Positions 1-40,485 are shown, counted from the first letter of the stretch. The stretch is 40,485 bases of DNA from an uncultured Candidatus Peribacteria bacterium (GCA_964625125.1 CAZVAP010000002.1:1-40485), one strand, 5' to 3'. Notes: generated from the letters alone by a model not told the origin. Numbers and translations: made by a program.

Positions 1-1951
1 ACCTATTAATATCTATATTCTCAATATTTATATCTACTTTCTTTAATAAGTTTTCTATAATAATAGATAAACCTTCCTTAAAAGAAGGTTTAACAATAGA
101 AAAAATATTATCATCTGGGATAATATCGTAAACCTCCATAACTTTCTTTAAAAAAATATAATCAAAAGTGTCTGAGTTAAAAAATTTTAATAAGTTTATA
201 GGATTAATTTGTAGATTAAATTCATTTACTATTTCATTTAATTTAAGCTCATTATCTTTAATGAAGTTTTTTATTTCTATTTGGTGATTTATTTGCTTAG
301 ATATAGAATTTTTTTCATTAGTGGAACTTTGTATTCCCTTTTCAGAAAAAATACTTCATAAAATTAAACTAAAATTTGATATAGCAAATAGTTTACCATT
401 AAAACTATTATAAGAATCAAGATTTTTTAAATTGTTTGCTTTCCCTATATCATGTAAAAAAGCAAACAATTCATATAGAGATTTTTTTGGAAGTAATAAT
501 CTAGTTTGTAAATCATTTAAAATATTAGCTATTTCAGATGGAAAAAATTTATCCATAACCATAAAAAGCTTAGATATCCTTTCCATATGAAAAATAGTTT
601 CTGGATGATTTTCTAATTTTTTTAATTCTACTTCTAAACTGGTATAAAAATCATTTAATGATGATACATATAACATCCATTCATTTATAATAGCATCTAC
701 TTTATTCTTATTAAATTCATTATATTCTTCATTGTCAAGAGGTAACCATAATTTAATTCCTAAGTTAAATTTATCTGAGAGTAAATAATAAATCTCCTTA
801 TAATTTTTTTTATCTACAGGAGTATTATCTGTAGAAATACCAGTTAAATAATTATCAATATACTTAGATAAAGATGTTTTAAAAAAAATAATATTAAAAT
901 ATAAATCTTCTAATTGTAAATGTAAATCATAAAATCTAATAACCAGACTTTTAATAAAATCTTTTAAAAATATAGGAGGTACCTTTACAATCTGGGAAGA
1001 AAAATATTTTTGTAAGCTATCAACATAAAAATTTACTTTATGAATATCAACATCTATATTTTCAACATTAGATAAAAACCTATTAGCTATAACTTTAACA
1101 TTTAAAAATGCTGAATAATTAGAAAGATATAATAAATCATCCTTTATACTTAAATCTCAAGTGGAAATATTTTTTATAACAGATAAAAATGAAGGAAAAT
1201 TATGTCAATTTTCTGATATTTTTCAGTTTCCAAAATCTACAACAAATCAAGAATAATCCATTAAAAAAGATACATATTTGTAAGCATCTTCTTTTAATGT
1301 ATTAATATCAAATCTTTCAAAAAATTGGGTATAATTAAACTTATCATTATTAAAAATATTTATTAACTTTAGATTAGAAACAAACACTGCTTTTTTCCTA
1401 AAATCTATCTCATCAAATTTTTCTAAATTATTAGAAAGATCTTTATAAAACTCATCTAATTTTTTAGCTATCACATTTACTAACTCAGTTATATCCTCCT
1501 TTAAAAATAACATATTACATATAAAATATCAAGAATAAGAAATCACAGTATTAATAGCAGAAAAATATTTTTCATAATCTCAACTATAATTAACATTAAC
1601 AGAAAAAAATCTTAAAATATATTCTTTCAAGTTTTTTAATAATATATCTTGTTTTTTATCTACTAAGGAAATAAATATTAACAAAGTAATAACACGAGAA
1701 TTTAAATAAAACTCTTGAACTCATAATTTATCCAATTTTAATCCTTTTAACAACTCCTTTAACTTATTAATTCAACCAAATTTATTAAACTCAGTAGAAA
1801 ATTTATCTATATAATTGTTATCTAAATATCAAAGCAATTTATCTACTTCCTTAACTAAAGAACCAATATCATCTCCAAAACTTATATTATTAGGTAAGTT
1901 ACTATCTGCATATTCAACAGAATCATTTTTATTAATATTATGTATTGACAT
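1..1951 (-). CDS. HD-domain protein with long N-terminal extension (3' end runs off the window; more than 650 aa)
   Basis: ATG at 1951 (rc). With TGA read as Gly, one frame stays free of TAA/TAG down to position 2. It joins track fragments 1247..1513 and 356..676. It carries an H...H(x~30)FLHDIGK metal-binding motif (HD codons rc 449..454). The rest has no motif I recognise. Confidence 0.6.
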
Positions 1952-2051
1952 TTTAAATATATTGTTTATAATAAAACTACATTTATATCATAAATAAAAA
2001 CAAAATGGGATGCTAAAAAAGAAAAAAAACTAAAAGTAAAAAAGGAGATTT

Positions 2052-2072
2052 AGGCTCACTTAATGTGAGCCT
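2052..2072. terminator. Stem-loop just 3' of the ABC ATPase gene (putative intrinsic terminator)
   Basis: AGGCTCAC (2052..2059) pairs with GTGAGCCT (2065..2072) across a 5-nt loop. It lies 5 nt beyond the stop at 2077..2079. The T-run is immediate on the + strand; the U-run on the - strand is offset by about 9 nt. Confidence 0.5.
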
Positions 2073-2076
2073 TTTT

Positions 2077-2817
2077 TTATTTAATTTCTATCTTCTCTCA
2101 AGTTGATTTAATTTTTTCTACAAAGAACTCCTCTAAATTCATATTGACACTGTTTATATCTCATTCAAATATAATTTTTCACTTATTAATAATTGCAAAT
2201 CTATCTGCTATTTCCTGAACATCTGGTAAAATATGAGTATTAAAAAATATAGTAGTTCATTGTTGCTTTAATTCTTTCATAATTCCTTTAACTAGTTGTC
2301 TTCCTAATGGATCCAAACCTGACATTGGCTCATCAAAAAATACTAATTTTGGAGAATGAATTATTGCAGAAGCAATTCATAATCTTTGCTTCATTCATTT
2401 AGAATAAGTTTTTATGTACCTTTTAGCTGCAAAATCTAATCATACTTTTTTAAGATAAATGGGAACTAAATCCTTAAGGTCTTTATAAGACAATCAAGAT
2501 AATTTTCCCATATAATATAAAAATTCTTCTCAAGTTAAATAATCATAATAATATGCATTTTCTGGAGCAAAACCTATATATTTTAGGATTTGTCTATTTT
2601 TATGTAAATTTTCTCAAAAAATTTTTATTTCTCAACTAGTAGGTTTAATAAAGTCTAAAATAGCCTTAATAGTAGTTGTTTTTCCTGCTCAATTTGGTCA
2701 AAGAAATCAAAAAATCTCACCTTCATTTACTTCAAAGCTAACTCATTTTAAAACTTCTAATTTTTTAAAATTTACCTTAAAAGTTTTCTTTAAATCTTTT
2801 ACTTCTAAAACACTCAT
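2077..2817 (-). CDS. ABC transporter ATP-binding protein (246 aa)
   Basis: Table-25 translation MSVLEVKDLKKTF... has Walker A FGFLGPNGAGKTT (two of the Gly are TGA, rc 2698..2700 and 2689..2691), signature YSKGMKQRLGIA and Walker B LVFFDEP. It ends at TAA. No permease gene is adjacent. Confidence 0.9.
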
Positions 2818-2838
2818 TTACTTAATTTAGTAAATAAA

Positions 2839-5223
<2,385 letters not shown>

Positions 5224-5294
5224 TTAAAAAATATTAAAAATAAAAAAAACAATTAGTTTATATAAAAAAAATTAAGTTTTTCAATTGAAAACAT

Positions 5295-5321
5295 TTAAAA
5301 AAACCTAGGTTTTACCTAGGT
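5295..5321 (-). terminator. Intrinsic terminator after secG
   Basis: Two copies of the self-complementary 8-mer ACCTAGGT (5303..5310 and 5314..5321) are separated by TTT, directly after the TAG stop (5322..5324). The A-run 5295..5302 gives a U-run on the - strand. Confidence 0.6.
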
Positions 5322-5687
5322 CTATTTATTTTCTAATGATTTAGTTTTAATTTCAACTGCTCTGTTATTTTCTGTTTTGATTTTAATATTTTCTGGAGCA
5401 AGTTTTATTTTCTGATTAGATTGAACTACACCAGCAGAAATTTTCCCTGTAGATAAAGATTTTTTAGCTAAATAAGGATAAATCAAAGCACTACAAGTAA
5501 AAATAACTAAACTAACAATTGCTACTCTTTTTAAAGTAAACTCAACAGATTTTTTACTACCATACTCATTTGAAGTAGACATACCTCATAAACCAAATCC
5601 TATTCCTCCTTTTGGAGTCATCAACAACACAGCTCAAATAAACAAACCTCCAGATAAAATCATTAAAAACAACACAAATCCTATCAT
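5322..5687 (-). CDS. secG: Preprotein translocase subunit SecG-like small membrane protein (121 aa)
   Basis: MIGFVLFLMILSGGLFIGAVLLMTPKGGIGFGLGGMSTSNEYG...LKRVAIVSLVIFTCSALIYPYL. It has two TM helices flanking a Gly-rich loop, which is the typical SecG layout. The track ORF 5322..5582 is extended upstream through two TGAs to the ATG at 5687. Confidence 0.65.
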
Positions 5688-6119
5688 AAATATTAATTAA
5701 CAATTTAAAATAATAAGCTACTTATAACTATTTTAAATCTAAGTTCAATTTTTATTTTTTACTTTTTTTCAAATACTTATTTCTTTCCTTTACTGCTTTT
5801 TTAAACATTTCTTTATTCCGTTGCCTATAAATCTGTTCTCTAAATTTCCATAAATTAGGCCAGTAATCTAATAGTTTTTTTCCTTTTTTTCATATAATTC
5901 AATTATTAATGAAGAGTCCAAAATTGAATTAAACTTATTTTTTTAAAGCAAATAATAAGCAATTTTAGTATATTTATCAGCAACTTTTCTTAAAAATTCA
6001 AATCTGTAATAAATAATTTCTCACAATCCCATCAATAAAACTTTGCATAATTTATTTTTAACTCATTGATTATTATTTACACATTGTTCAGCTTTCAAAT
6101 ATAATGATTCAAGTTTTCA

Positions 6120-8498
6120 TTATTTATCCTCATAGATATAAAACTCTAAAATATCTCACTCTTTAATTTTTTTACCTGTTCTTACTCTTACTCAACATTC
6201 CCTTCAAGCTTTAACTTCATTAACATTTTCTTGCTCAATTTTTAAGGAAGTTACTTTACCACCACCCAATTCATCTTCTCATCTTTTTAAAACAAAATGA
6301 GAGCCATTTTTAATAAATCCATCAATTACCTTTCAACCAATAATCATGTCATTTCATTTTTTATAGAAAATAGCCAATACCTCAAGTTTACCAATATATT
6401 TTTCTTCTTGCTCTTTTTCGATTAAACCAGCTGCAAGTTTTTCAACATAATCTAATAATTCATAAATAATAGTAAAATTCTTAAAAATTATCTTTTTCTG
6501 CTCTAATTTCTTTTTTAAAGAAGAATTTATTCAAGAATCAAACCCAAATATAAATGCACCTGAAGCCTCTGCTAAAGCTATATCTGAATCTTTAACTTGT
6601 CCTACTTCTTCATGAATAATTTTTAATTCTACACCTTCCGGCAAATTAACTTTTCATAAAGCATATTTTAAAGCTTCTAAACCACCGAAATCTCCAGCTT
6701 TTAAAATTAATTTTAATTCAACATTTTCACCGGCTTTCATTTTTTCAAGGAAAGAAGAAAGTGCAGTCTTTTGCTCAGTTTTTTTAATTATTTCTTTAAT
6801 CTTTTCTACTTGCTTTTGTGCTTCTTTTTCTGAATCAAAAACTTCAAATATTCTTCAAGCTTGTGGTACATCCTCAAATCACATTACTTGAACAGGATCT
6901 CATCATTTTGCTTCATTAACCACTTTACCAGTCCAGTCTTTCATAAGTCTCATTTTACCATATACATCATAAGCAACAACTGAATCTTTTTTTCTTAAAG
7001 TTCAAGTCATAACCAACAATGTAGCAATAGTTCAAGCTTTAGCATCTTTAGAAGCTTCCAACACAACTCATACTGCAGGAGCCTTCGGATTATATTTTAA
7101 CTCCAACATTTCAGCTTGAAGCAAAATATACTCCAATAAATCATCTACTCATTCTCAAGTAACAGCTGATAACTCAATAAATGGGACATCACCACCCCGT
7201 TCTTCAGGAATTAATCCATGCTCAGACATTTGAGACTTACACATTTCAGGATTAGCATTTGGTTTATCAATTTTTGTAATTGCAACTATTATACTAACTC
7301 AAGCATCTTTAGCATGATTAATAGCTTCAACAGTTTGTGCTTTTACACCTTCATCTGCAGCAACTACTATTACAGCAATATCTGTAATTTTTGCACCTCT
7401 TGCTCTCATAGCAGTAAACAATTCATGTCAAGGAGTATCAATGAAAGTTATCTTTTTACCATTATGAGTTATTTGGCTAGCTCATATACTTTGAGTAATA
7501 CCACCAGCTTCTTTTGAAACAATATCAGTTTTTCTAATATAATCCAATAATTTAGTTTTACCATGATCTACATGTCCCATAATAGTTACAATAGGAGGTC
7601 TTTCTACTAATTCTGACTCATCTACCAAAGAATTCTTAGCTTCTATAATTTCCTTTAGATTCCCTTCTACCATAGCATTAACATCTGTTTTCACATTTTC
7701 TCTTTCTACTTTTACACCAAATTCATCAGCTAACAAAACTACGGTATCAAAATCAACTGACGAATTAATACCAACTGGCATTCAGTTTAACAAAAATTTT
7801 TTAATAACTTCTGTAGCAGGAATACCTATTTTTTCAGAAAGTTCTTTGATACTAATAGAATCTCCAATAACAATTTTATCTTTCTTTTTTAAAGTATCTG
7901 AAACCTTAGGTTTCCTTTCTTCTTTTTTAACTGGCTTATTTTTGTTTTCCTTTTTTTCAGCTTTAGAAACTTTTGAATCCTTAAAATTATTTTTCTTAAC
8001 TTTAATTTTATTTCCGGTTTCCTTTCTTTCTATAACAGGTTGCTTTCTTTCCTCTTTAGTTTTTTTAACAACTGTAAATGATTTTTTCTCTGGTTTTTTA
8101 AAGTTTTTATCTTTAGTTGACTTAGATTTTATATCTTTTTTAAACTCCTTCTTTTCTTTATCTGAAAAATGTTTTTGTTCTGATTTTTCTTTATTTTTTT
8201 CAGTTTCAACTTTTTTTTCTTCAGTATCAATAGATTTAGAATGCGATATACCTAAAGTAGAAGCTAAGAAATCTACCTCATCAATATCATGAGAAGTTAA
8301 AACCTTTTTATCATCCTCTTTAGAATTTTTAGATTTTGAAGATAGTTTTTCTAAATCAGCTTTTATTTTATTAAAAGTAGAATCTCAAATTCTAGTAGTT
8401 TTAGAAGAATATGGCTTACCAGTTTTTTTCTCCAATAAATTAAATAAATCTGCCCTGCTAATTCCATATTCATTTACAATTTCCTTTATGCTCTTCAT
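6120..8498 (-). CDS. infB: Translation initiation factor IF-2 (792 aa)
   Basis: A Lys/Glu-rich N-terminal region is followed by the G domain [19 protein letters not shown]...GGITQSIGAS...[17 protein letters not shown] (the Gly of PGH is TGA, rc 7428..7430). The C-terminus is ...[32 protein letters not shown] checked the frame across 6120..6960. It ends at TAA. Confidence 0.95.
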
Positions 8499-8546
8499 AA
8501 ATTTTTACAACAAAAAAATAAAACCTCAAGTAGTTATATTAAATTT

Positions 8547-10691
8547 TTAGTAAGTTTCAACATAAACCCCAGGAAAATACCACTGAATAATTTGTTTATA
8601 ATTTAATCATTTTTTAGCTAAAATTTCTGCTCATTTACCTGACAATCAAACTCAATGTCAATAGAATTTTCCACAATTTCCTAAATCAGGAGTATTTACT
8701 AAGTATGGAGTATCAATCCGTCAAAATTTCTGTTTTGCAGAAAAAGTAAAACCAGCAGAACAGCTAAAATAAGGCAAAATTGGAATATATCAGTTATATA
8801 ACAACACCTTATTTTTAATAAAATCTAAAGCTTTTGCCCATTTTTTAGAAGTAGCCTCAAAACCAGCTCCAACATATTTTTGAAAAATCCTAGGATCATC
8901 TACTGCATTATAACTAGCTCATTTAGGTATAAAAGGATGAATATTTTTTTTATTTTGATAAAATAAAACATAATCTTTAGCCAATAAAGCCATAACTTTT
9001 AATTTTTCCATAGGCATTTGATCATTTCATTCAGCAATTCATTTTAAATAATCTTGTAAGGATAATTTATTAATCACCACATATTTTTTAAAAATTTTAT
9101 GAGAATTAATTTTTTTTATGTAATCCTTTTTAATTAAAATTTCTCCTCTAAAAAAATTCCAAGGAATTCCAGCATAAGATTTTCTAGAATAATTAGTAAA
9201 TTTTATAAAACCTCATAGTGAGTCAATTTTAATATATTTTGCTTTAATAAGCTTTCAATTAATCCACAATAACAAATTATTAAATTTATCCACTGAAAAA
9301 GTTTTTGCAGTATAGGTTCTCTTATCTGTGTAAATAACACAAACTTTAGAACAACGAAAATCATAATGATTTTTCCAAGAAAGCTCATACAACAACACAT
9401 TTACAGGTAAATTATTTATATTAGATAAATCCTTCAAATAAATCCTTTTTTTAATTTTAACAGATAGCTTGGGATGAAAAAAATATTTTTTATTAACCTT
9501 ATTTTTAATAATCAATCTTAGATTACTCATAAAAATAGCTTTTCATCTAACAATATAATTAATTTTATCTTGAAATAACTTAAAATCTAAAGGCTGATAA
9601 ATTACTGGCAAAGGATATTTCAATTTCACAAAGACTTTATTTGACTTACAGAAAATTTCTAAATTTTTTACATTTGAGTTACACTTTAAAAATTTATTAC
9701 CAGAAAAATTAAGTACTAAAGTATCAGATAAGGTAAATTTTAAAGGTAAATTAACTATTTGAGTGATTTTTTTACTAACAAATCTAATTTTATTATTTTT
9801 TTCCTTAGAATTTCAAATAGCTTTTAAGTCATTAAAAACCTCTTTTCTAATAAATGGAAGTAAATTATAAAGATATTTTCCTGGACACTTAGTATGTCCT
9901 GTATCACGATGACCTGCTAAAGCATAATATGTAACATCTTTAATATAAGGATATTTCGGATAACTCTCATGATAAACTACTTTAGAATAAGGGTTTATAT
10001 TATATTTTTTTGCTAAAGCAGTTGATAATTTAATTAAAGATTTAATTTGTGCAGGTGTTGGCTTTTGTATCTCAAAATTTCAAATTAAAGCTATACCAAT
10101 AGATGAAACATTATTCCATTCGGAATTAGCACCAACTACAGAATCACCTCCTGCTCTTCATTCATATATATTTCAATAAGGTCAAATTAAAAAATTATAT
10201 CCAATATCTCACCATCATCTTTTAATTGCATGATAATAGTAAACTCCACGAATAAACTTTTTAACATCTTCAATAGATTTAAATTTTCTATAATCTGAAT
10301 CAGTATGATGAATTATAATACTTACCTTATGATATTTATATGAAAAAGGCCAAAATAATCTTTTTCAATTTAAATTAGGTATATATTTATCTGCTTTTAC
10401 CTGTTGTTTCCAATTTTTAAGAAGATATTTTTCCTGAGTTTTTCTAATAGCTTGTTTTTCAAGCCATCTTTTATAAGCTAATTTATCCTTTTTTAATTTT
10501 TCAATATATTTTTTTTGAGCTAAAATCATTTGTTTATAAGCTTTATAGTCAGCATATAAGTATTTTGAATCAGCTCACCATTGTTTTCTAGAAATAATAT
10601 CTATTCAAGGTAAATTCCGGTTAAAAGAAAAAGATATACTAAAAGCAAGTAACACAAAAATCAAAACAAAAACTTTTTTCATTAAATTCAT
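8547..10691 (-). CDS. Secreted peptidoglycan hydrolase: N-acetylmuramoyl-L-alanine amidase (Amidase_2/PGRP) fused to a C-terminal SpoIID/LytB domain (714 aa)
   Basis: Signal peptide [22 protein letters not shown]. Amidase_2 motifs: IIIHHTD...[25 protein letters not shown]...GHRDTGHTKCPG. SpoIID motifs: GIAEGNDQMPMEKLKVMALLAKDYV...FQKYVGAG...YFSCSAGFT...GHGVGLSGKGAEILAKKGLNYKQIIQWYFPG. It joins track fragment 9255..9530. Confidence 0.8.
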
Positions 10692-11257
10692 AGCTTATCA
10701 ACTAAATTTTTTAATTTTGATAAATCTTTTTTTATTTCTTCCTTTTTAGAAGGATTATATAAAGCTACTGCAGGATGATAACAAGGTAACAAAAATAATC
10801 AATCCTCAAATTTTTCTCATTTAAATTTAGTTATCTTAAATATTTTTCAATGGTCTTTACTAATTTGCAAGTCTGGAATAAAAAAATTCATTGAAAATCT
10901 ACCCAAAGTAACAATTATTTTAAAATTACCTAATTTAAGTTGCTTTAACAAATAAGGAGAACAAGTTTTTATTTCTTCATCTTTGGGGTCTCTATTATTA
11001 GGAGGACGACATTTAACAATATTGGTAATATAATAGTCTTTTTCTCTATAAAATCATAAGTCTTCTAAAATAGAAGTTAACAATTTACCTGACCTTCCTA
11101 CAAAAGGTTTTCCTTGCTTATCTTCATCTGCTCCTGGTGCCTCACCTACAAACAAAATTTTAGAATTAAAATTTCAGTCACCTGGAATAGGAGCATTACA
11201 GGTTTTTCTTAACTCACATTTATTACAACTTTTAATTTGATTAATAAGCTCTTCCAT
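10682..11257 (-). CDS. Uracil-DNA glycosylase, family 4 (191 aa)
   Basis: ...[10 protein letters not shown]...[27 protein letters not shown]...[15 protein letters not shown]...YHPA. The 3' end overlaps the amidase start by 10 nt. It ends at TAA. Confidence 0.85.
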
Positions 11258-28739: not shown

Positions 28740-30003
28740 AGTTAGTTGATTTCCAGAACTATTACCAGAAGAAAAATTAATTGAGGAAAAAATTATCAAT
28801 ATAATTAAAAAAAATTATCAACAAATATGATATACTCCAATAGAAACTCCTGCAGTAGAAAGAAACTCAGTTCTAACTGCAAAATGAGGTGATGAAGTAA
28901 GTAAACAAATTTTTTGATTATATGGACTAGCTCAATGATGTGAAGATAAAAAAGATTACTCATTACATTTTGATTTAACAGTGCCTTTTGCAAGATTTAT
29001 AATAGACCATAAAAATGAACTTACTTTCCCTTTCAAAAGAAGCCAAATTCAAAAAGTTCGAAGATGAGAAAGAGCCCAAAAATGAAGATTTAGAGAATTT
29101 TACCAAGCAGATATTGATGTAATATGGGAAAGTGAAAAAAACTTTGAATTTTATGATGCTGAAATTGTTTTTACAATAAATAAAACTTTACAAAATATTT
29201 TCTCAGAACTAAAAATAAACGAAACTTTTACAATAAAATTAAACAACAAAAAAATAATTAGCTGATTTTTAAAATGAATAAATTTAGATGAAAAAATACT
29301 AGAGATCACAAGTATAATTGACAAAAAAGATAAAATTTCACAAGAAGAATTTATAAATTTACTAAAAAAAGAAAGATTAACACCAAACCAGATAAATCAA
29401 ATTACAGATTTCACCAAAGCTACTATTGATAAAATTACACCATTAAATGAGGAAATGGGAAAATGAATAAATGAATTACAAAACCTTCTAAATAATTTAC
29501 AAAACCTATGAGTATCAAATATACAAGTAGATTTTTGAATAGTAAGATGACTAGATTATTATACCGGAATGGTATTTGAAACATTTATTGACAATAATAG
29601 AAAGTTAGGCTCTATTGCTTCTGGATGAAAATATGAAAATTTTACAAAATTTATAGATAATAAATTTAGTTTTTCAGGAGTATGAGGTTCTATATGAATT
29701 TCAAGATTAGAAAGTTTTATATTTGAAAAATTAGAATTAAATAAAAAAACTACAACTGAGTATCTTATAATAAATTTTCCTGAAACAAAAAAAGAAAGTC
29801 TAAATCTACTTATTTCTTTATTAAATCAAGGAAAACAAGTTGAATACTATCCAAACAATGATAAACTAAAAAAACAATTTAAATATGCAGATAAAAAATG
29901 AATAAAATATTGTATTATATTGGGAGAAAATGAGCTTAAAGAATGATACTATTTACAAAAAAATATGATAACTTGAGAACAAGAAAAAATATACTTGAAA
30001 TAA
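28726..30003 (+). CDS. hisS: Histidine--tRNA ligase (425 aa)
   Basis: GFPELLPEE...TPAVE...[12 protein letters not shown]...[21 protein letters not shown]...[12 protein letters not shown]...GGKYEN...GVGGSIGISRL. I checked the frame across 29101..30003. It overlaps the rsmI end by 14 nt; an alternative ATG lies at 28732. Confidence 0.9.
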
Positions 30004-30057
30004 AAAACTCTTTTTTTATATTGACATTAAGTTTAATTTTTAACAATTTTTTAACAA

Positions 30058-31155
30058 ATGGTATTTGAAAAAAAAATCATTGTAAAACCTTGAACTATAG
30101 ACCTTTCTAAAACAAATTTAAAAGATATAATTAGCCTTTGTACTCCTGAAGAACAATTTGTATTAACTGAGAAATATGGGCTTATAAGCAATAAACCTAC
30201 TCCTATGCAACAAATTTGACAAAAATTCAACATGTCAAGAGAAAGAATCAGACAAATACTAAATAAATCTTTAAATAAAGTAAGAAGATTAATTTCTCAT
30301 GATAAAAACCTTGAAAATATAATAAAATTAGCTCATCAAATAACCAAAGAAAATTGATATATAATCTCAGAAAAAGAACTAATAAACACATTATTAAATA
30401 AAATAGAATGAAACTTTTCTTATAATGAACTATTACTAATTTTAACATCTGACTATGATTTATACTATTTGCATAGAAATAAAAGGTTTGATAAAATTTT
30501 CTTCATAGAGCCATTATTTGAAGACTTAATAAATGATATACATGATACTGCTTATGAAATTTTAGAAACTGAAAAAACTTTATTCACACAAGAACTAATT
30601 GATAAGTTAAAAAGCTTATTTATCAATAAGTTTAATAGAAATTTATCTATAAAAGAAGTATTAGAAAATGATAAAGTTTATCAAAATATATTTAACTACT
30701 CAAGGCACATTTACCAATTTGACTGAAAAATTTGACTTGAAGATAACCCTATAGTAAACCCAAAAACAATAAAACTAAAAATTTTCTATATCTTAGACAA
30801 AGAAGGAAAACCTTTACATTATTCTGAAATATTTAAAAGAATTAAGGAAGTTTTTAACTTATCAAAAATAAAGGAAACTACAGTTCATAATGAACTAGTA
30901 AAAAATAAAGAATTTATAAATGTAGGAATGTGAACTTATGGATTAACAAAATGGTGATATAAAGGAACAAATACACTGGAAACTATAAAAAACATACTAA
31001 AAAAGGCTTGAAGACCAATGAAAATTTCAGAAATTACAAAAGAAGTTCTTAAAGAAAGAAACATCAGAGAAATTACAGTATTAATGACTTTACAAAAAAA
31101 TCCACAAGTCTTTAAAAGAGTATCTAAATGAGTTTATACATTAAACAAAGACTAG
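30058..31155 (+). CDS. DNA-binding protein with sigma-70 region-4-like HTH and C-terminal HARE-HTH-like domain (365 aa)
   Basis: EEQFVLTEKYGL...PMQQIGQKFNMSRERIRQILNKSLNKVRR is sigma r4-like. PLHYSEIFKRIKE...TVHNELVKNKEFINVGMGTYGLTKWG is a HARE-HTH pattern, followed by a second similar repeat. It ends at TAG 31153..31155. Confidence 0.6.
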
Positions 31156-31174
31156 GGGACTCCCTAGTTTTTTA
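31151..31174. terminator. Bidirectional stem-loop shared by two convergent genes
   Basis: ACTAGGG (31151..31157) pairs with CCCTAGT (31162..31168) across the loop GACT, followed by TTTTTT. The TAG of the + gene (31153..31155) and the TAG of the - gene (rc 31164..31166) sit in opposite arms of the stem. Confidence 0.6.
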
Positions 31175-32690
31175 TTATTTTAAAATACCTACTTAAATCC
31201 TTTAAAGTCATACCAAAATAACTTAACCAACTATTTCTCAAAGCATAAGTTATATCATAATAGTAATTATTAACTTTAGAAACCTGATGATAGTATCATC
31301 TATTAGAATATCAATCTACAATATCAGCATTTTGTCAATTAAACAAAGCTACTAAAGAAAATATATCTGATAAAGTTTGACAAACTCAATTTTTTGTTTT
31401 CAAAGTATAAAAATCAATCCAATTTTTCATTAATGATTTGTTGTTATTCAAATATTTATCTAATTCTCAATTTTTATAAGGATGTTTATTTATAAAATTA
31501 GAAATTTTTTCATTATAAGAAAAATTCATTTTCATATACTTAAATACTTCAGATAACTTTTTTCAATTAAATTTTAAAGAAAACACAATTAAATCTTTCA
31601 TATCTTTAGGAGTATAAGTATAATAACCTCTAGAAATAAAATAAAAAGTAGGTTCCAATATTTTTCATAATTTATTTAAATCAACATTCCCATAAAGTCT
31701 TTTATCTCAAAGATAAAAAAAATCAACAACTCAAGGCTCCAATAAATAAAAATTATTTTTATAAAAAAATACTAAGTTATAATTCTTTTTTAGAATTCAA
31801 TATATTAAAAAATCTAAATTTTTAGCCAAGAAATATTTAAAACTATTTTTATTAAAAGAAAATCAGAAAAGTTTACCATTATATTCAATAATTCATTTAG
31901 TAGGGAAAGTAGAATTATTTTGTGTATAAAACTTATCAATAACCAAAACTCAGTGCTTTTTTAATATATCTAAATTCTGTTTAACAGATAATTTAGGAGA
32001 CATTCAATCTAAATAAATAACATTAACCTTTTTTACAAATAAAGCTTCAGAATTTCAATAAAAAAGATAATCTGCTTTATACTTATGTAAATAATAATCT
32101 GCTTTTTTTACTATGTCCTTAATAACTGATGAAGAAGCTCTAATATAAGAATAGCCATTTAGTCTATACCAGGAATTGTTAACTTTTATATTAAATCAGA
32201 TTTTATCCTGTAAAGGAGAAACTCTTTTTAAAGGTAAAATATTTTCATAGTTAAAAATAGGTTTTAGCTGAAATTCTTTATCCAATGAATTTAAAAATTT
32301 TGTGTTAATAACTGAATTTAATTGAAAATCTCACCTTAATTTAATATTGGAAGAAGCAATATTTTGTTTTTTAATTTTATTTTTAGAATTAGATGATAAT
32401 AAAGTTTTACACTTTCTTTCTTCAAGACTTTTTTTAAGTTGAATCCTATAAGCAAATAAATTAAGAAAGTCTTTATATTTAGGATATTTATTAGAATATC
32501 TATGTAATATATAAGAAATTTTATCATAATAAAAAGGAGCTTTCCTACAATATACGTTTAGAAGTGGGAATTTCTTATGTAATCTTATATCAATTTTATT
32601 AATATAGGAATTAATAAAATCATCGTAGTTTACTGCCAATGAAGTTCAACTAAATAAAATAAGTAAGATAAAAAAAACAATTTTTCTCAT
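31164..32690 (-). CDS. Secreted transglutaminase-like (Cys-His-Asp) domain protein (508 aa)
   Basis: Signal peptide MRKIVFFILLILFSGTSLA. The C-terminal core NGVCQTLSDIFSLVALFNGQNADIVDGYSNRGYYHQVSKVNNYYYDITY matches the transglutaminase-core spacing (C...H...D). It extends track ORF 32331..32639. Confidence 0.65.
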
Positions 32691-32757
32691 TTGTATTTAT
32701 TTTTATTTCTAAAAAAGTATAGTATATTATTATTTTACCAATTTATTTGTCAATAAA

Positions 32758-34395
32758 ATGTTTAGCATAGCTTTTTCAGGACCAGCTTGAAGTTGAGTAA
32801 ATACAGCTTGATTAATTATAGCAACATACTTAAATAAACTATGATATAAAGTTTACTGAGATAAAGAGTATCAAAGTATCATAAAATGATGAAACAATAC
32901 TTTTATTGTCTATTTTGATGAAAAAGATATTTTTCTTTCAAAAAAAATAAATTTATTTTTTGCTTTTGATAACTTATCTATCCAAAGAAATCAAAAAATA
33001 TATGAAATTGAAAATATCATAGCTATACCATATGAAAACTGACTTTATCAAAATATAATAAGTGTATGAGCTGCATTTAAAAGTCTTGGTATCCCAGTTA
33101 CTGAAGCAATAAATCATTTAAAAGACTATTTTTCTTATAAAATTTTACCTGATGAAATCATCAAAAAAAATATAGAATCTCTAAAAATAGGGTATAAAAT
33201 AGAAATTTCTAAAACTAAACCTATAAAAAAAATATGAGAACCTAGTATTTTCCAGGATTGAAATAAAACTATAGCTGAATGAGCATTAAAAGGTTGATTA
33301 GAATTTTATTCAGCATATCCAATGACTCCAGCTTCTAGTTTAATAAAGTATTTATCAAATAAAATAACTTTCTTCCAAGGAGAAGATGAAATAGCAGTTG
33401 CAATGTCTATGCTAGGTGCAAGATTTGCAGGTAAAAAAGCTATGTGTTGAACTTCCGGATGATGATTTGCTTTAATGGTTGAAAGTATAAGTTTTGCCAA
33501 CCAGGCTGAAATATGATGAGTTTATATATTATCTCAAAGATGAGGACCTTCTACTTGAACTCCAACATTTACAGAACAATGAGATATATTATTTGCTTGT
33601 AACCCAACTTTTTGAGATACCAAACCAATTGTTATATATCCAAATACATTTGAAAATTGATATAACCTAATTCAAAAAGCATTAAATTGGTCAGAAATCT
33701 ATCAACATCCTATAGTGGTATTACTGGATAAGCAATTTTCAGAAAGTTATTACACCTTAAAATTAAAAGAAGAAAATAATAATTCCCAAATTAATATAGA
33801 TGAAATTAAATTTAATCCTACTAAACCTGAAAAATTTAAAGAATTTAAAAGTTTACAGGAAGATAAGTTTTTAAGATACAAAATAAATGAAAATGGAATA
33901 TCAGCTTATACATATCCTTGAATAAAAAATTGAGAATTTATAGCTTCAAGCTATGAACATACAGAAAGCTGATTTTCTACAGAAGACCCTGAAATTAAAC
34001 AGAAAATGACTGAGAAAAGACATAAAAAGCTAAAAACATTTAAAAATAGAGAATTTAATGAAAACTTTTATGGTTATGAAATAATAAATCCAGATGCTAA
34101 AAAGTTTATCATTACCACAGGGATAAATCATTTAGTATGTAAAAAATTTGCACAAGATAATAACTGGTGATTAATAACAATTACAATGATTCAACCTTTA
34201 GATACAAGATTTAAAAAATACTTGGAAAATGCAGAAGAAATTGTATTTGTAGAATTAAACAAGAGTTGACAATTACAACAAATAGTAAGCTGTGAAATAT
34301 GATTAAACTGCCAAAATTACAAAAATAAAGTAAAACATATTAGAAAATACAATAACTATCCTTTATTTATTGAAGACTTAAATAAACTTTTATAA
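32758..34395 (+). CDS. 2-oxoacid:ferredoxin oxidoreductase, fused gamma-alpha subunit (545 aa)
   Basis: Gamma-like N-terminus FSGPAGSGVNTAGLII. Alpha motifs: DGNKTIAEGALKGGLEFYSAYPMTPASS...GEDEIAVAMSMLGARFAGKKAMCGTSGGGFALM...GGPSTGTPT. It contains track ORF 33715..33921. It ends at TAA. Confidence 0.8.
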
Positions 34396-34410
34396 TTAAA
34401 ATATAAACCA

Positions 34411-35256
34411 ATGCTTTATGATGCTCATACTCACCTAAACTCACCAGAGTTATTCCCAAAATATGAAGAATTATTGGAAAATTTTTTAAAAGTAAATTGA
34501 AAAATTTTAGTAAATGTTTGAGTTGATTATGAACGGACCCAAAGAGCACTTGAAATAGCTAAAAAATATCCAGCTTATTGTTTAGCAACAGCTGGTTTTC
34601 ATCCATCTGAAGTAATTTTTAAAGAAAAAAACTGAAAATTTTTATTTAATATGGAATATTTAAACTGGACAGATTATTTAACAGAAGTAGAAAAATATAT
34701 TTCAAATTTAATTGAAACTCAACAAATAGTAGCAATATGAGAATGTGGACTAGATTATCATTACACTGAAAAAAATAAAGAACCTTTAACAGAAACTACA
34801 AAAGAAAAGCAAAAAGAACTTTTTATTCTGCAGTGTGAAATAGCTAAAAAATATGATTTTCCACTAATTATTCACTCAAGAGATGCTTTCAAAGATACTA
34901 TAGAAATTTTAAAAAACTTTAATAATCTTAAAATCTATTTTCATTGTTGGTGATACTGACCAGAAGAAATTAAACAAGCAATAGAATTATTCCCAAATTT
35001 AAAAGTTTGATTTGATTGAAACATAACTTATAAAAAAGCTGATAATTTAAGGCAATCTGCTATAACTTGTCCTTTAGATAAAATTTTATTAGAAACTGAT
35101 GCTCCATATCTTACACCACAAATAATAAGAAAAGAACAAAACCAACCAGCAAATGTAAAATATGTATATGAATTTGTAGCTCAATTAAAAAATTTAAGCC
35201 TAATAGAATTAGAACTAGCTATAGAAGAAAATTTCTTTAATTTTTACTGAATATAA
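34411..35256 (+). CDS. tatD: TatD-family metal-dependent hydrolase/DNase (281 aa)
   Basis: MLYDAHTHL...GFHP...IGECGLDYH...PLIIHSRDA...FHCWGYG...LLETDAPYLTP. Confidence 0.85.
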
Positions 35257-35717
35257 TGAAACCAGCCATAGCATTAGAAAATATAAGAAGTGCCTACAAT
35301 GTAGGAAATATAATAAGAACTGCTGATGCTTTAGGTTTTGATGTTATATTATTATGATATAGCCCTTCTCCATTAGAAAATGAAAAAGTATTAAAAACAT
35401 CATTATGAGCAGAAAAAAATGTTAATTTAAAACAATTTTATAATACAAAAAAATGAATTGATTTTATTAAACAAAATTACAACTTATTAATCTCAGCTGA
35501 GTTAACCTCTAATGCAATTCCTTTGACTGAATTACCTAAAAAAATTAAAAATAAATCTTACTGCTTACTTGTAGGAAATGAAGTAAATTGAGTTAGTCTA
35601 GAAACATTAGAAAGATCTGATATTATAAGTTTTATACCTATGAAATGAGTTAAGGAAAGTTTAAATGTATGTGAAGCAGCTACTATATTTATGTGGCATT
35701 TATCAGTAAATATTTAA
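35256..35717 (+). CDS. SpoU/TrmH-family RNA 2'-O-methyltransferase (153 aa)
   Basis: LENIRSAYNVGNIIRTADALG...LLVGNEVNGVS...IPMKGVKESLNVCEAATIFMW. The ATG overlaps the tatD TAA (TAATG at 35254..35258). Confidence 0.8.
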
Positions 35718-35718
35718 A

Positions 35719-36066
35719 ATGAAATTTTTTCTAATAATAAACTTTTTAAAAATATTAATTTGAGGAAGCATTATTTATTTAGCTTACAACTATATTGATA
35801 TTAGTAAGGATTTTTTAATTTGAGTTTGAGTTATGAGTTTAGGAATTTTCCTATTTCTATGGTGAATTAGTTTTTTTTTGCTTGCTTGAATAATTTATTT
35901 AATTAACAAAAATCCTAAAAAAGCCTGCTTAACAGCCTATAAATATACTGGATTATTTGCTGTTTATATTATCGTAAATTTTTTATTATTAGCTTTTAAC
36001 TTTTGGAATAAAATTATAGGATTTACTTTACTTATTTGCTTTATAATACTATGAATATTGATTTAG
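35719..36066 (+). CDS. Small hydrophobic membrane protein (115 aa)
   Basis: The ATG lies 1 nt after the previous stop. There are three to four hydrophobic segments (e.g. VMSLGIFLFLWGISFFLLAGIIYLI). It ends at TAG 36064..36066. No family motif. Confidence 0.5.
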
Positions 36067-36683
36067 ATAATGAAATTTTAAAAGAAATTGAAAAATTTTT
36101 AGATAATAACTTAGATAATTTCATTGCACAAAATATTTTAAAAGACCAAAAAAATATTGATGAACTTTTAAGAAAAATACAAACAAAATTTAACTTAAAA
36201 AATTATCCTTATAAAATAATTTGTTTAGATATTTCACATAATAGCTGACAAAATCCTGTAGGATGAATTTCTGCAATGAAGTGATGATTTTTAAGTAAAA
36301 AAGATTATAGACAAATTAAGATACCAACTGAACTTTGAGGAAATGACTATGAAAGTATTAAATTTTGCCTAAATAAATATTTTGAGAACAATCAAGCTGA
36401 TTTAGTAATTATCGATTGATGAAAAGGCCAATTAAATACAATTTTTAATTTACCAAATAAAATATTACTTAAAACAGATTTTATAAGTATATGAAAATGA
36501 AAAGCTAGAAAAAGAAGCTGAAAATTAGAATGAAAACACGAAATTTTTTACACACTAAATTGAGAAATCCCAGTAAATTATGAATTATTAGAGGATAAAT
36601 TGCTAATAAAACTTAGAGATGAAGCCCATAGATTTGCTAATAAATATAGAACTAAAATTTGACAAATTAAAAATAAAATTTAA
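36051..36683 (+). CDS. Stand-alone UvrC C-terminal (RNase H-like, 5'-incision) endonuclease domain protein (210 aa)
   Basis: YKIICLDISHNSG (36222..36239), VIIDGGKGQL (GG = TGA TGA, 36417..36422) and LRDEAHRFANKYR (36618..36635) correspond to the UvrC catalytic Asp/Asp/His region. There is no GIY-YIG, UvrB-binding or HhH region. I chose ATG 36051 rather than the track's TTG at 36036. Confidence 0.7.
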
Positions 36684-36716
36684 AATTAAATTAAGTTTTA
36701 AAAATAAAAATAAAGT

Positions 36717-37256
36717 ATGGAAAATTTAAAATCCTTTGAATCATATGAAAATAATCCTGAGCAAAATCTTTTAAAAGAAACAAAAAACAAATTAACTTCT
36801 CTCACAACTGAATTAAAAAAAAGCTTAGAGTTACTAAATGAACCTCTTATAAAAGACTCAATAAAACAAATTAATACTCTATTGTCAATTAATGACTTAT
36901 CTGAAATAAACATTACGGAAAAGACAAATATACTAATTGAAAAATTAAGTTTATCAACAAATCCTCTAGCAAAAGATTTATTAAATGTAGTGTACTTAAT
37001 ACAACTTAAAGATTTCTGAGAAGTTTCTTTAGATGAAGTAAAATTATGAATAGAAAATATAATAGAAAGTAAAAACTTGCCAAAATCTATAAAACTAAAA
37101 ACAATTAGATGGTTAAAAAACAATGACTATTTAATTTGAGATAAGTTTGAACAAGTAAAATTACAAAACGAATTATTCAAAAAATATCCAAATTATAATT
37201 GGTTTAACTTTGAACCAACAACTACGGGTGAATACACAAACATATTTACACCATAA
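36717..37256 (+). CDS. Hypothetical protein (179 aa)
   Basis: Track ORF 36717..37019 continues through three TGAs to TAA 37254..37256, directly in front of a terminator hairpin. It is co-directional with its neighbours. No motif recognised. Confidence 0.5.
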
Positions 37257-37286
37257 ATAACCCAGATAAAATGGGTTATTTTTTTC
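37256..37286. terminator. Stem-loop between convergent genes
   Basis: AATAACCCA (37256..37264) pairs with TGGGTTATT (37272..37280) across a 7-nt loop, followed by TTTTTT. The TAA of the minus-strand methyltransferase (rc 37276..37278) lies inside the 3' arm. Confidence 0.6.
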
Positions 37287-37818
37287 TAAATAACATAAGA
37301 CCATCATTAGGAGGTATAGAAAAAATTTTATAATTAATTTGATTTTTATTTAAAAATTCATACAATGGAAGTGTTTTGGATTTGAACTTTACAACATTGT
37401 CCAGCAGTACCACAGCATTTTCTTCTAGCAAATCCTCAAAAGCTAAATAAAAATCAAGATAAAATTTCATCACAGCATCTATAAATAAAAAATCAATTCT
37501 TTTTTTTGTAAAAATCTTTTTTAAGTTAATCTGTAATGGATCTATATTATATGCTGTGATGTTATACTGCTGGAAGTTGTTAAAGTTCTCCAAAGCTTCC
37601 ATATATGAGGGATAAGAAACTTCAAAAGTTGTTAAAGTTCCTCACCAATCTGAAATTGCATTTGCTATTACTAAACTTGAATATCATATTGCTGTTCAAA
37701 TCTCAACTACATTTATTGGTTTTGTTCTATTTAAAAAATCTAATAAAATTCTTTCTACCTCCGGTTTAATAACTGGAACTTTATTAGCTTGAGCATAAAG
37801 CCTTAATCTAGATAGCAT
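37276..37818 (-). CDS. Class I SAM-dependent O-methyltransferase (family 3 / YrrM-like, 180 aa)
   Basis: NVVEIGTAIGYSSL (motif I) and IDFLFIDA (motif II-like). It extends track ORF 37276..37602 upstream to the ATG at 37818. Confidence 0.75.
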
Positions 37819-37903
37819 TATCTAAAATAAAAAAATAAATCTATTTTGTTATATATATACAAGAATTTAAATCAATTTATTTACTTTATTAATAAAAAAC
37901 AAG

Positions 37904-39892
37904 ATGACAGAATTTTCAAAAGCTTCATTACCACAAGAAGAAAATAATGGAATTCCTTTAGGAGAAAAATTAATAGGAAAATTTAAAAAAATAATCTCAA
38001 CAAATAAAGAGCAAAAAACAGAGAAGCAAAATACAGAAGTCAAAGAACAAAAATCTAATACTACAAATGATATTGTAAAAACTAATAATAAAAAAACTTA
38101 CACAAATGAAGAAAGTTTCAAAATTCTACCAGGAGAAAAACCAGTTAAAATTATGTCTTTGATGTGATTAGAACAAGTTGGTCAATGCTTATTAATAGAA
38201 TATGAAAATGATATGATAATGATAGATGCTGGTATGGAATTTGCAGCTGATGAAGATGTATTAGGAGCAGATTATGTAATCCCAGATATTAGTTATGTAA
38301 AAGAGAATCTACACAAATTAAGATGAATTTTATTAACTCACGGACATTTAGATCACATATGAGCATTAAAAGATATTTTACCTGAATTAGAACGGCCAAC
38401 TATATACACTACTCCACTTACATTAGGAATTGTAAAAAGGTCTTTCCAAAGCAAGGAGCAAATGAATAAAATTAAATATAAGATAATAAATCCTGATATT
38501 GATATTGTAAAATTAGGTGTATTTACAATAGAGTTTGTTCATGTAAACCACAACATACCAGAAACAATGGCTATGGCTATTCACACACCAAAATGACTAA
38601 TATTTAATACTGCAGACTTTAAAGTAGACTTTACTCCTGCAATTGATAGACCTGCAGATTTATCAAAAATTGCTAGAATTTGAAACGAAGGTGTTAAATT
38701 GTATATTGGTGATAGTTTAGGAACTGCTTCAAGAGGTGGAACAACTAAATCAGAAAAAGAAATTTGAGAAAATTTAGAAAAAGTAGTAAAAAATATAGAT
38801 TGAAGAGTTATTGTAGCTACTTTTGCATCAAATGTAGGTAGAATTATGCAATTAATTAATGCAGCTGTAAGAAACAACAGAGTTGTATTTTTAGCTTGAA
38901 GAAGTATGGTAAACAATGTAGAAATTTGTAAAGAATTAGGTTATATTAAAACTCCTCCGGGAATGGTAAGACAATTAAATGAGGAAGTAGAACAAATGCC
39001 AGACAATAGAGTTATGATAATTTGTACTTGAGCTCAATGAGAAGAATTCTCTGCATTAGCTAGAATGGCAAGAGATGAACATCCACAAATAAAATTAAGA
39101 AAATGAGATACTATTATGATGTCTTCATCAGTTATTCCAGGAAACGAGCTTCAAGCTGCAAAAATGATGGACTTATTAGTCCAAAAAGACGTAACATTAA
39201 TTACAAATGATGATATTGATATACATGCTTCATGACATGGTTCTGTAGAAGACCATAAATTATTCTTAAACCTAGTAAATGCTGAATATGTTTTACCTTA
39301 CTATATGACACCATATCACAGATATGCTCATAAAAAACTAGCATTAGATATGTGACGGCCAGAAGAAAAAATATTAATGCCAAATGAAAACTGACAAATA
39401 ATAGAAATGTATGAAAATTGAATTAGAATTTCACCTAAGAAATTAAAATTAAATACAGTATTAATTGATTGAAAAGGTAAATGACATTTAAGCTGAGAAT
39501 ATGTAGTTCAGGCAAGAAAAATCATGGCACATGATGGTGTATTGGTACTAACTTACAAAATTGATACAAATACAAAAGAAATTATATGAAATATACAAAT
39601 TGAATCGAGAGGTTTTGTATATTCATCAGAAGTTAAAAAAGTACATACCCTAATTGTAGATTTTGCTAGAGCTGAATACAATAAAATAATAAAACAATTA
39701 ATTAGAAATTGAATTAAACCAGAGGATATAGAAATAAAAGATGTGTTAAAAGAAATAAAGAAAAAACTTGAAGAATTTACAGCACAACATATTTGAAGAG
39801 TTCCTATGATAATAACAACTTATGTTTATATAAACAGACAACCAAAGCAAGCTCAACAAAATCAAGAAAAAGAAGAAAAATCAGAGAAATAA
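37904..39892 (+). CDS. rnj: Ribonuclease J (662 aa)
   Basis: A Lys/Glu/Asn-rich N-terminal tail, then IDAGMEF...ILLTHGHLDHIGAL (TGA 38360..38362)...beta-CASP region...IHASGHGS. I read the whole frame codon by codon to TAA 39890..39892. Confidence 0.9.
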
Positions 39893-39915
39893 AATAAAAA
39901 ACCTTTACCTTTAAT

Positions 39916-39948
39916 AACTCACTTCAAAGAAACTGAAGTGAGTTTTTT
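39916..39948 (+). terminator. Intrinsic terminator after rnj
   Basis: ACTCACTTCA (39916..39925) pairs with TGAAGTGAGT (39933..39942) across a 7-nt loop, followed by TTTTTTT. Confidence 0.75.
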
Positions 39949-40085
39949 TGTTTAAAAAATAAATGTTAAGTTTTATTCAATACATAAAATATCCTAATTA
40001 TATTATTATCTTGTATGTACTAACCTACTATTTACATTAGAATTACTTATAAAAATCTTCTACATTAAATAAAATATTAGCAAAC

Positions 40086-40121
40086 AAAAAAAAACACTTC
40101 TAGAAAAATTTTCTAGAAGTG
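40086..40121 (-). terminator. Intrinsic terminator after the partial minus-strand gene
   Basis: CACTTCTAGAAAA (40095..40107) pairs with TTTTCTAGAAGTG (40109..40121). The run of 9 A at 40086..40094 gives a U-run on the - strand. It lies 36 nt after the stop at 40158. Confidence 0.6.
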
Positions 40122-40157
40122 ACTTTTAAAATATAAATTAATTTTTAATACTATCTA

Positions 40158-40485
40158 TTATTTAAAGAACAAGAATGATGAATAAATTGAATCATGTTTA
40201 ACTATTACCGGATGAAATTTATCCTGAGGATCTCTTAAATCAAAATGTCTTATGTATGATCAACCACTCCATATCCAACCTCAAGCTAACTTAGCTCAAG
40301 AAGTAAGTGGTATAAAAGTAGAACCAGATAAGTATGCAGAATAATATCTTAAATAGTTAATATCATACATTTTAGCTAATTGCTGAGCTAAAACTAATCC
40401 ACTACCAGCTCCTTCAATATAATTGTTATAATAGTCATTAATCGTCTTAATATCATTATATTTTTTAGGTAAAATAATATAAGCT
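40158..40485 (-). CDS. Hypothetical protein, C-terminal 108 aa only (5' end outside the window)
   Basis: The frame is open from the window edge to TAA (rc 40158..40160) with three TGA Gly codons: ...GAGSGLVLAQQLAKMYD...GGWIWSGGSYIRHFDL... A terminator follows. No family recognised. Confidence 0.45.

Follow-up and report, generated by a model that had tools for sequence, protein, structure and literature searches.

UGA read as glycine, with CGG and probably CGA as tryptophan, predicted for an AT-rich contig of the SR1/Gracilibacteria radiation

We have analysed the genetic code of contig CAZVAP010000002.1 (assembly GCA_964625125.1, positions 1-40485) from an uncultured Candidatus Peribacteria bacterium. 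The contig, with a length of 40,485 base pairs (bp) and a guanine-plus-cytosine (GC) content of 24.4%, was analysed in its entirety and is referred to below as the window. In our view it is highly likely that the window is a chromosomal fragment of an AT-rich bacterium belonging to the UGA=Gly radiation, in which UGA serves as a major glycine codon, CGG and most likely CGA are read as tryptophan, and CGU is read as arginine. Two kinds of comparison yield these codon meanings, namely the statistics of conserved protein columns and the codons that orthologs exchange. Neither reassignment is new to the literature. UGA=Gly together with CGA/CGG=Trp has been predicted for Absconditabacteria, and part of it, CGG=Trp, for certain Gracilibacteria (Shulgina & Eddy 2021, eLife, PMC8629427), and the same code has been restated in a 2026 Nucleic Acids Research paper (PMC13092985). 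The contig therefore adds a further member to a known code, and its significance is practical, not conceptual.

Reading frames and the UGA codon

Under the standard code, the longest open reading frame (ORF) of the window has 184 amino acids (aa) (15299..15853, plus strand, inside gene g10), which is exactly the ceiling named in a preliminary description of this DNA. If TAA and TAG are taken as the only stops, frames open up to 897 codons, and 32 essentially non-overlapping ORFs with TGA as a sense codon tile 95.8% of the window, 27 of them ending at TAA, 4 at TAG and one running off the left end. None of the 32 meets an internal in-frame TAA or TAG, and UAA and UAG are still stops. The preliminary description further spoke of 32 full-length genes; the number of ORFs and the stops that close them were found again, whereas the number of complete genes comes down to 30, since the contig ends cut g01 at its 3' end and g32 at its 5' end. 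From base composition, one expects TAA or TAG at about 0.07 per codon, and consequently an open frame of 794 codons would arise by chance with a probability of about 3e-26. Low GC content as the sole cause of this pattern was considered and ruled out: in a GC-matched standard-code control, a locus from a Bacilli metagenome-assembled genome (MAG; L002, 24.6% GC), gyrA is intact (848 aa) and contains no in-frame TGA, so low GC by itself is no explanation.

Could the window follow the standard code, and could its in-frame TGAs have arisen as lesions in pseudogenes or through sequencing errors, or mark sites of programmed readthrough or selenocysteine insertion? The bare presence of in-frame TGA is all that speaks for this reading, and we give it a vanishingly small probability. 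Namely, the 32 genes contain 443 in-frame TGAs as against no TAA or TAG, the TGAs are concentrated on invariant Gly columns, 17 related contigs, independent of the window and drawn from other samples, show the same in-frame pattern, and the coding density is 96%.

Counted over the 12,925 codons of the window's genes, TGA occurs at 34 per 1000, next to 345 GGN and 68 TGG codons, and thus makes up 443/788 (56%) of Gly codons. Gly accounts for 2.7% of residues without TGA and for 6.1% with it, and Trp content would reach 4.0% if TGA were Trp. In the ABC transporter ATPase (g02), a recount gives 15 TGA and 7 GGN codons for Gly, in agreement with an earlier hand count of 15 in 22. All 14 codon coordinates cited in the preliminary description proved to lie in frame, in the gene named and in the peptide context given, including the TGA-TGG-TGA at 10209..10217 that reads G-W-G in an amidase motif.

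Ten conserved proteins were scored against Pfam with TGA taken as Gly (G), masked (X) or taken as Trp (W). Of 19 domain hits, 18 scored highest with G and lowest with W, with X in between, the IF-2 domain being the sole neutral one. For G, X and W, respectively, they were 99.1, 69.6 and 58.0 bits for ABC_tran; 550.2, 523.6 and 510.5 bits for DNA_topoisoIV; 126.4, 103.4 and 92.5 bits for Peptidase_M24; 82.5, 65.9 and 51.4 bits for tRNA-synt_His; and 75.1, 55.5 and 48.8 bits for TP_methylase.

In a Codetta-style analysis, all 20 amino acids were scored as log-odds over the homolog columns aligned to TGA. In GyrA, with 119 standard-code homologs and 33 TGA columns that could be used, Gly reaches +51.8 bits, followed by Ala at -49.2, with Trp at -140.6; on the same measure, the GGN columns of the window give Gly +52.8 bits. 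For translation initiation factor IF-2 (139 diverse cluster representatives, 21 TGA columns), the corresponding values are +45.4 bits for Gly, -46.3 for Asn as the next amino acid and -55.7 for Trp, with +77.7 bits for Gly over the GGN columns. Such an enrichment of Gly at TGA-aligned columns is the outcome that had been set as a check beforehand. At the level of single columns, the TGA of the IF-2 motif DTP-G-HE faces Gly in 139/139 representatives, and in five GyrA TGA columns, 116 or more of the 118-120 homologs have Gly. When the GyrA log-odds were extended to all codons, every codon with an adequate sample was found to decode as standard, and further reassignments were rejected on this basis.

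Codon exchanges were followed in orthologs from 17 related contigs, one near-identical contig being left out. Opposite window TGA (n=483), these orthologs carry GGN 198 times, TGA 221 times and TGG not once, while window GGN stands opposite an ortholog TGA 215 times. The Gly-like codons GGN and TGA together make up 87% of ortholog codons opposite window TGA and 88% of those opposite window GGN.

The alternative that UGA is read as Trp (code 4, as in Mycoplasmatales) leaves the frames open too, and automated gene callers do pick it: the protein collection stores the IF-2 of the window (P0121) in code 4, with W for each of the 22 TGA codons and R for the CGG. However, code 4 is exceedingly improbable in view of the strongly negative Trp log-odds for both proteins, the absence of TGA-TGG pairs among the 483, the Trp content of 4.0% that it would entail, the amidase motif with TGG between two TGAs, and Pfam scores with W that, for all but one of the 18 domain hits scored both ways, fall below the masked ones. 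The Pfam scores, the column log-odds and the codon exchanges together exclude code 4 and the standard code, and we regard it as virtually certain on these comparisons that UGA would be translated as Gly in the window. The view that TGA is Gly throughout and that code 4 does not fit is thus upheld by lines of evidence that agree. The warning that standard-code annotation is invalid here holds even more strongly than it was put, as code 4 and table 25 also mistranslate the contig.

The CGG, CGA and CGU codons

The preliminary description had placed the window under translation table 25, with Trp remaining on TGG. For UGA=Gly, for the stops UAA/UAG and for TGG=Trp this is borne out; the rest is not, in that the nine CGG codons behave as Trp codons and the one CGA probably does so as well. 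CGN codons are few in the window (CGG 9, CGT 5, CGA 1, CGC 0; 15 in total), and Arg is mostly encoded by AGA (275) and AGG (52). CGG is found at 7.0 and CGA at 0.8 per 10,000 codons, an approximately 9-fold difference, and CGG makes up 9/78 of the inferred Trp codons at 24% GC. At such a GC content, CGG as an Arg codon would be expected to be rarer than CGT, not commoner. The main sites are listed below, g06 being a cell-wall hydrolase.

7197..7199, minus strand: CGG at residue 434 of IF-2, the conserved Trp of PEE-W-GG (context LIPEE-[CGG]-GGDVPF)
38393..38395, plus strand: CGG at residue 164 of RNase J; orthologs have TGG five times, CGG twice, TTC/TTT four times and TAT once
39356..39358, plus strand: CGG at residue 485 of RNase J; orthologs have TGG five times, CGG three times, ATG three times and ATA once
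10617..10619 and 8718..8720, minus strand: the CGG codons of g06
10248..10250, 9906..9908 and 9354..9356, minus strand: the CGT codons of g06
29059..29061, plus strand: CGA at residue 112 of histidyl-tRNA synthetase (HisRS), the sole CGA of the window, at an aromatic position of motif 2

At the IF-2 site, Trp occupies the column in 5/5 PDB IF-2 sequences and in 121 of the 139 diverse representatives (with Y in 9, F in 5 and R in 2). Among 119 relatives in the protein collection, the column holds W in 82, R in 37 and nothing else, and the two switch even between closest relatives. This alternation is what TGG/CGR synonymy produces after standard translation, and, at the codon level, the related locus L004 indeed has CGG at residue 434, and L005 and L006 have TGG. 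In RNase J, residue 164 is an aromatic position at which the TTC, TTT and TAT codons belong to five distant relatives, and at residue 485 the ATG and ATA codons belong to four distant relatives; Arg codons are found at neither. Both CGG sites of g06 stay CGG in L004, and a CGG of L004 faces window TGG at g06 residue 192.

Over all sites, window CGG (n=27) pairs with ortholog TGG 12 times, with CGG or CGA 6 times, and with Arg codons not once; the remaining 9 pairs involve other codons, for aromatic or hydrophobic residues. By comparison, window AGA, AGG and CGT (n=482) pair with Arg codons 338 times and with TGG not once; the difference in pairing gives a Fisher p of 1.7e-22, although the pairs share phylogeny and do not count as independent. 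Conversely, window TGG faces CGA of relatives four times and CGG once. From all this, with little room left for doubt, CGG would be a Trp codon in the window.

One could still argue for plain NCBI table 25, that is, UGA=Gly with everything else standard and CGG and CGA as rare Arg codons. Its UGA=Gly part is fully supported, CGG and CGA are scarce (10 codons) and several of them lie in non-conserved columns, and the Pfam scores with R and with W are nearly equal. However, an Arg codon would hardly fall on a column with W in 121 and R in 2 of 139 sequences, nor would it pair with TGG 12 times and with Arg codons never while 482 Arg-codon pairs contain no TGG, and the excess of CGG over CGT would be anomalous for Arg at 24% GC. 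We consider table 25 in its plain form very unlikely.

As for CGA, the residue that aligns with HisRS residue 112 is W in 6nhi, the nearest of the solved structures, F in 3net and Y in the human enzyme, and it is never R. With this CGA read as W, the tRNA-synt_His score is 85.7 bits, as against 82.5 bits with R (+3.2 bits); HisRS was the only protein whose score shifted when the CGG and CGA sites were scored as R versus W. One of the CGA codons that face window TGG, carried by L001 and L003, sits in a GyrA column in which the 119 standard-code homologs have only F (66) or W (53), and L010, with 74-80% protein identity, has CGA opposite window TGG twice, including g30 residue 58. We therefore consider that CGA is probably read as Trp too.

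A narrower reassignment, in which UGA is Gly and CGG is Trp but CGA has no assignment, has an ambiguous one or has stayed Arg, in the manner of the CGG-only Bacillota, would suit a codon that is nearly extinct (1 CGA in 12,925 codons), and Codetta has made CGG-only predictions for some Gracilibacteria (PMC8629427). It is unlikely all the same, given that the sole CGA falls on a W/F/Y position that is never R, that the relatives just named use CGA opposite window TGG or in the F/W-only column of GyrA, and that, in bacteria of the candidate phyla radiation (CPR), a tRNA(UCG) would read CGA as well as CGG (PMC8629427). In a separate observation, the distant RNase J genes of L014-L019 (GC 28-42%) have CGA in a variable loop, opposite the non-aromatic window codons GGA, ACA, ATT and GAA; its meaning may differ in these relatives, or the columns may simply be unconserved.

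CGT behaves differently from CGG. The CGT of the family-4 uracil-DNA glycosylase (g07, 11006..11008) encodes the invariant Arg of KC-R-PPNNR, with R in 4/4 PDB family-4 enzymes, and CGT and CGC of relatives pair with Arg 32 times, with Lys 10 times and with Trp not once. By these comparisons, CGU is still read as Arg and the CGN box is split.

That said, several points weigh against the reading of UGA as Gly and of CGG and CGA as Trp that we prefer. To begin with, the evidence is comparative throughout, for UGA as for CGG and CGA, and the codon-pair counts share phylogeny. For 4 of the 9 CGG sites (g06 residue 25, the two in g11 and the one in the TatD-family hydrolase) no informative homolog column was available; in PDB alignments, the SpoIID, TatD and PilC sites landed in columns that are non-conserved or badly aligned, with Asn or Ala opposite the SpoIID site and a Val of M. 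xanthus PilC opposite the PilC site. At most CGG and CGA sites, generic Pfam models do not distinguish R from W, and this scoring is mostly uninformative because such models leave the columns in question unmodelled. The meaning of CGA rests on a single site of the window. As regards the decoding machinery, there is no tRNA gene within the 40,485 bp, and none of the 32 products matches a Pfam release-factor family, although 40 kb cannot show the absence of prfB from the genome. Finally, no tRNA with anticodon UCA, UCG or CCG is present in 18 related loci.

An Rfam scan of the window returned zero matches. The tRNAs found in the related loci are Lys(CTT), Trp(CCA), Arg(CCT) and Leu(GAG), with tRNA-Lys(CTT) and tRNA-Trp(CCA) standing side by side in L004 (39..191). 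Being the ordinary reader of UGG, tRNA-Trp(CCA) is uninformative about the decoding of CGG, CGA or UGA.

How could such a code have come about? What has been published on the biology of the clade allows one to propose that UGA and the CGR codons initially became rare under AT mutational pressure and could then be captured. A tRNA-Gly(UCA) would then read UGA following the loss of RF2, and tRNA(CCG) and tRNA(UCG) that had acquired Trp identity would read CGG and CGA. Judging from the literature, tRNA-Arg(GCG) would retain CGU and CGC.

Lineage, relatives and gene content

The sole close match of GyrA among species representatives is a Candidatus Absconditabacterales MAG (L001, 56% identity), and the named matches of IF-2 (50-53% identity) are labelled Absconditabacterales, SR1 or Gracilibacteria. 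Nearer relatives come from metagenomes: IF-2 has a graded series at 67-89% identity, and RNase J has relatives from Joint Genome Institute (JGI) metagenomes at 59-96%. Locus L007 (Ga0256833_1008261, 1..6627) matches the window at approximately 33.1-39.7 kb with about 100% protein identity over g24-g31, and relatives at 72-80% identity occur in the sister samples Ga0256829, Ga0256842 and Ga0256843. The closest relatives have a GC content of 21-26% throughout. In a rough neighbour-joining tree of IF-2, built with G, W and R masked as the residues that the recoding affects, the window's clade is sister to all named SR1, Absconditabacterales and Gracilibacteria and lies far from standard-code outgroups. 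On sequence grounds, the contig most likely belongs to the SR1/Gracilibacteria (UGA=Gly) radiation, which corresponds to class JAEDAM01 in GTDB, in line with the SR1/Gracilibacteria-type lineage suggested previously. According to the gTranslate preprint, users of table 25 all fall in the GTDB class JAEDAM01 (orders Absconditabacterales and BD1-5).

If the deep placement holds, it is conceivable, but no more than a tentative suggestion on our part, that the capture of CGR from Arg by Trp is as old as UGA=Gly and ancestral to the radiation, with CGG re-expanding against AT pressure. In that case, the capture would not have taken place later and in Absconditabacteria specifically, with scattered cases among Gracilibacteria. 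In this sense, the contig is a data point for the question raised by Shulgina and Eddy about the age and spread of CGR-to-Trp within the UGA=Gly radiation.

By identity, the closest GyrA homolog in the protein search (63%) is P0004, from L003 325..3984 (GCA_054046625.1). This protein (1219 aa) contains an intein (Intein_splicing and LAGLIDADG), and the GyrA of the window (794 aa) has none. As stored, P0004 has W at 13/26 invariant-Gly columns, a code-4 mistranslation.

The genes of the window are listed below, with the source of each assignment in brackets.

2..1951, minus strand: g01, protein without Pfam match, 3' end cut by the contig end, 10 TGA
2077..2817, minus strand: g02, ABC transporter ATPase (ABC_tran), Walker A TGAs at 2698..2700 and 2689..2691
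2839..5223, minus strand: g03, DNA gyrase subunit A, 794 aa, 34 TGA (Pfam and homolog columns)
5322..5687, minus strand: g04, SecG-like protein, a weak match (Pfam; orthologs in L004-L006)
6120..8498, minus strand: g05, translation initiation factor IF-2, 22 TGA and 1 CGG
8547..10691, minus strand: g06, Amidase_2 and SpoIID cell-wall hydrolase (Pfam), with the TGA-TGG-TGA at 10209..10217
10682..11257, minus strand: g07, family-4 uracil-DNA glycosylase (Pfam), with the CGT at 11006..11008
11301..13901, minus strand: g08, secreted beta-propeller domain protein (PF09826)
14028..15098, plus strand: g09, PilT-type ATPase (Pfam), Walker A TGA at 14412..14414
15098..15853, plus strand: g10, cNMP-binding domain protein (Pfam)
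15845..17077, minus strand: g11, protein with hydrophobic N-terminus, 410 aa, 27 TGA, no Pfam match, CGG at 16487..16489 and 16409..16411
17087..18763, minus strand: g12, CCA-adding enzyme/poly(A) polymerase family protein with HD domain (Pfam)
18809..19837, minus strand: g13, PriA, C-terminal half only, 342 aa (Pfam)
19842..20936, minus strand: g14, PilC/GspF platform protein (Pfam), CGG at 20253..20255
20954..23092, minus strand: g15, FtsK/SpoIIIE DNA translocase (Pfam)
23157..24308, minus strand: g16, MFS transporter (Pfam)
24332..25150, minus strand: g17, prephenate dehydratase with ACT domain (Pfam)
25155..25940, minus strand: g18, methionine aminopeptidase (M24), 14 TGA (Peptidase_M24)
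25961..27928, minus strand: g19, protein without Pfam match (ortholog in L006)
28062..28739, plus strand: g20, RsmI-type methyltransferase (Pfam), TGA at 28311..28313 and 28320..28322
28726..30003, plus strand: g21, histidyl-tRNA synthetase, 19 TGA and 1 CGA (Pfam)
30058..31155, plus strand: g22, sigma-70 region 4 and HARE-HTH protein (Pfam)
31164..32690, minus strand: g23, protein without Pfam match, possibly secreted
32758..34395, plus strand: g24, 2-oxoacid:ferredoxin oxidoreductase (POR/POR_N), 29 TGA (Pfam)
34411..35256, plus strand: g25, TatD-family hydrolase (Pfam), CGG at 34534..34536
35256..35717, plus strand: g26, SpoU-family RNA methyltransferase (Pfam)
35719..36066, plus strand: g27, small membrane protein, no Pfam match
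36051..36683, plus strand: g28, UvrC RNase-H endonuclease domain protein, 210 aa (Pfam), TGA-TGA at 36417..36422
36717..37256, plus strand: g29, protein without Pfam match
37276..37818, minus strand: g30, O-methyltransferase (Pfam)
37904..39892, plus strand: g31, RNase J, 21 TGA (e.g. 38360..38362) and 2 CGG (Pfam)
40158..40484, minus strand: g32, protein without Pfam match, 5' end cut by the contig end

This gene set is the ordinary housekeeping of a reduced CPR-type genome. Replication, repair and division are represented by GyrA, the family-4 uracil-DNA glycosylase, the C-terminal half of PriA, FtsK and the UvrC endonuclease-domain protein; translation and RNA metabolism by IF-2, the CCA-adding enzyme, methionine aminopeptidase, RsmI, HisRS, the SpoU methylase and RNase J; and envelope, transport and pilus functions by the ABC ATPase, SecG, the Amidase_2/SpoIID hydrolase, the beta-propeller protein, PilT, PilC and the MFS transporter. 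The other products are the cNMP-binding protein, prephenate dehydratase, the sigma-70 region 4/HARE-HTH protein, 2-oxoacid:ferredoxin oxidoreductase, TatD and the O-methyltransferase, while seven products are Pfam-negative (six of no assigned function and one small membrane protein).

A few local features deserve mention. The C-terminal part of PriA (g13) and the lone UvrC RNase-H domain (g28) resemble single-domain remnants or minimal versions. PilT (g09) and PilC (g14) stand on either side of g11, which could be a divergent pilin or a pilus-associated protein. The gap between IF-2 and SecG (5688..6119) is unusually long at 432 bp, with a GC content of about 22%, and the syntenic junction in L004 measures 65 bp; no ORF of note and no Rfam match was found in this gap.

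Annotation and comparison with known codes

What does this code mean for annotation? Applied to the contig, code 11 would shatter every gene, code 4 would place Trp at 443 Gly positions, and table 25 would place Arg at about 10 Trp positions, for instance in the PEE-W-GG motif of IF-2. The storage of the window's IF-2 in code 4, described above, is not an isolated case: in 71/119 related IF-2 entries Trp exceeds 2.5%, which indicates that code-4 mistranslation is widespread among the database proteins of the clade. To our knowledge, no NCBI table combines UGA=Gly with CGA/CGG=Trp. As a result, the database proteins of the clade are systematically wrong, and homology searches, structure prediction and phylogenies that use them are degraded.

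Among known systems, code 4 (Mycoplasmatales and several insect endosymbionts) resembles the window in that an AT-rich, reduced genome uses UGA as a sense codon, but UGA means Trp there and, by our reading, Gly here. The Bacillota with CGG=Trp (Anaerococcus; RFN20/Onthovivens; PMC8629427, PMC13092985) are alike in that Trp has captured the rare CGG codon in a low-GC genome; in contrast to the window, to which they are not related, UGA still terminates translation there and CGA still means Arg. Table 25, for which PMC8629427 cites Campbell et al. 2013 and Rinke et al. 2013, shares UGA=Gly, the stops UAA and UAG, and UGG=Trp, and differs in keeping CGA and CGG as Arg.

The closest counterpart is the code of Absconditabacteria (PMC8629427), in which UGA is Gly, CGA and CGG are Trp and CGU is Arg; the same meanings are predicted for the window, that of CGA as a probable one. 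Common to both are also a very low GC content, rare CGN codons, Arg almost entirely on AGA, and Absconditabacterales, SR1 or Gracilibacteria as the closest named homologs. The differences are ones of degree and position. Namely, CGG far outnumbers CGA in the window, whereas CGA is the commoner of the two in most Absconditabacteria (PMC8629427). The GC content of 24% is just under the range of 0.26-0.38 quoted there for clades with CGA/CGG reassigned, and the window's clade falls outside all named SR1 and Gracilibacteria in the rough IF-2 tree.

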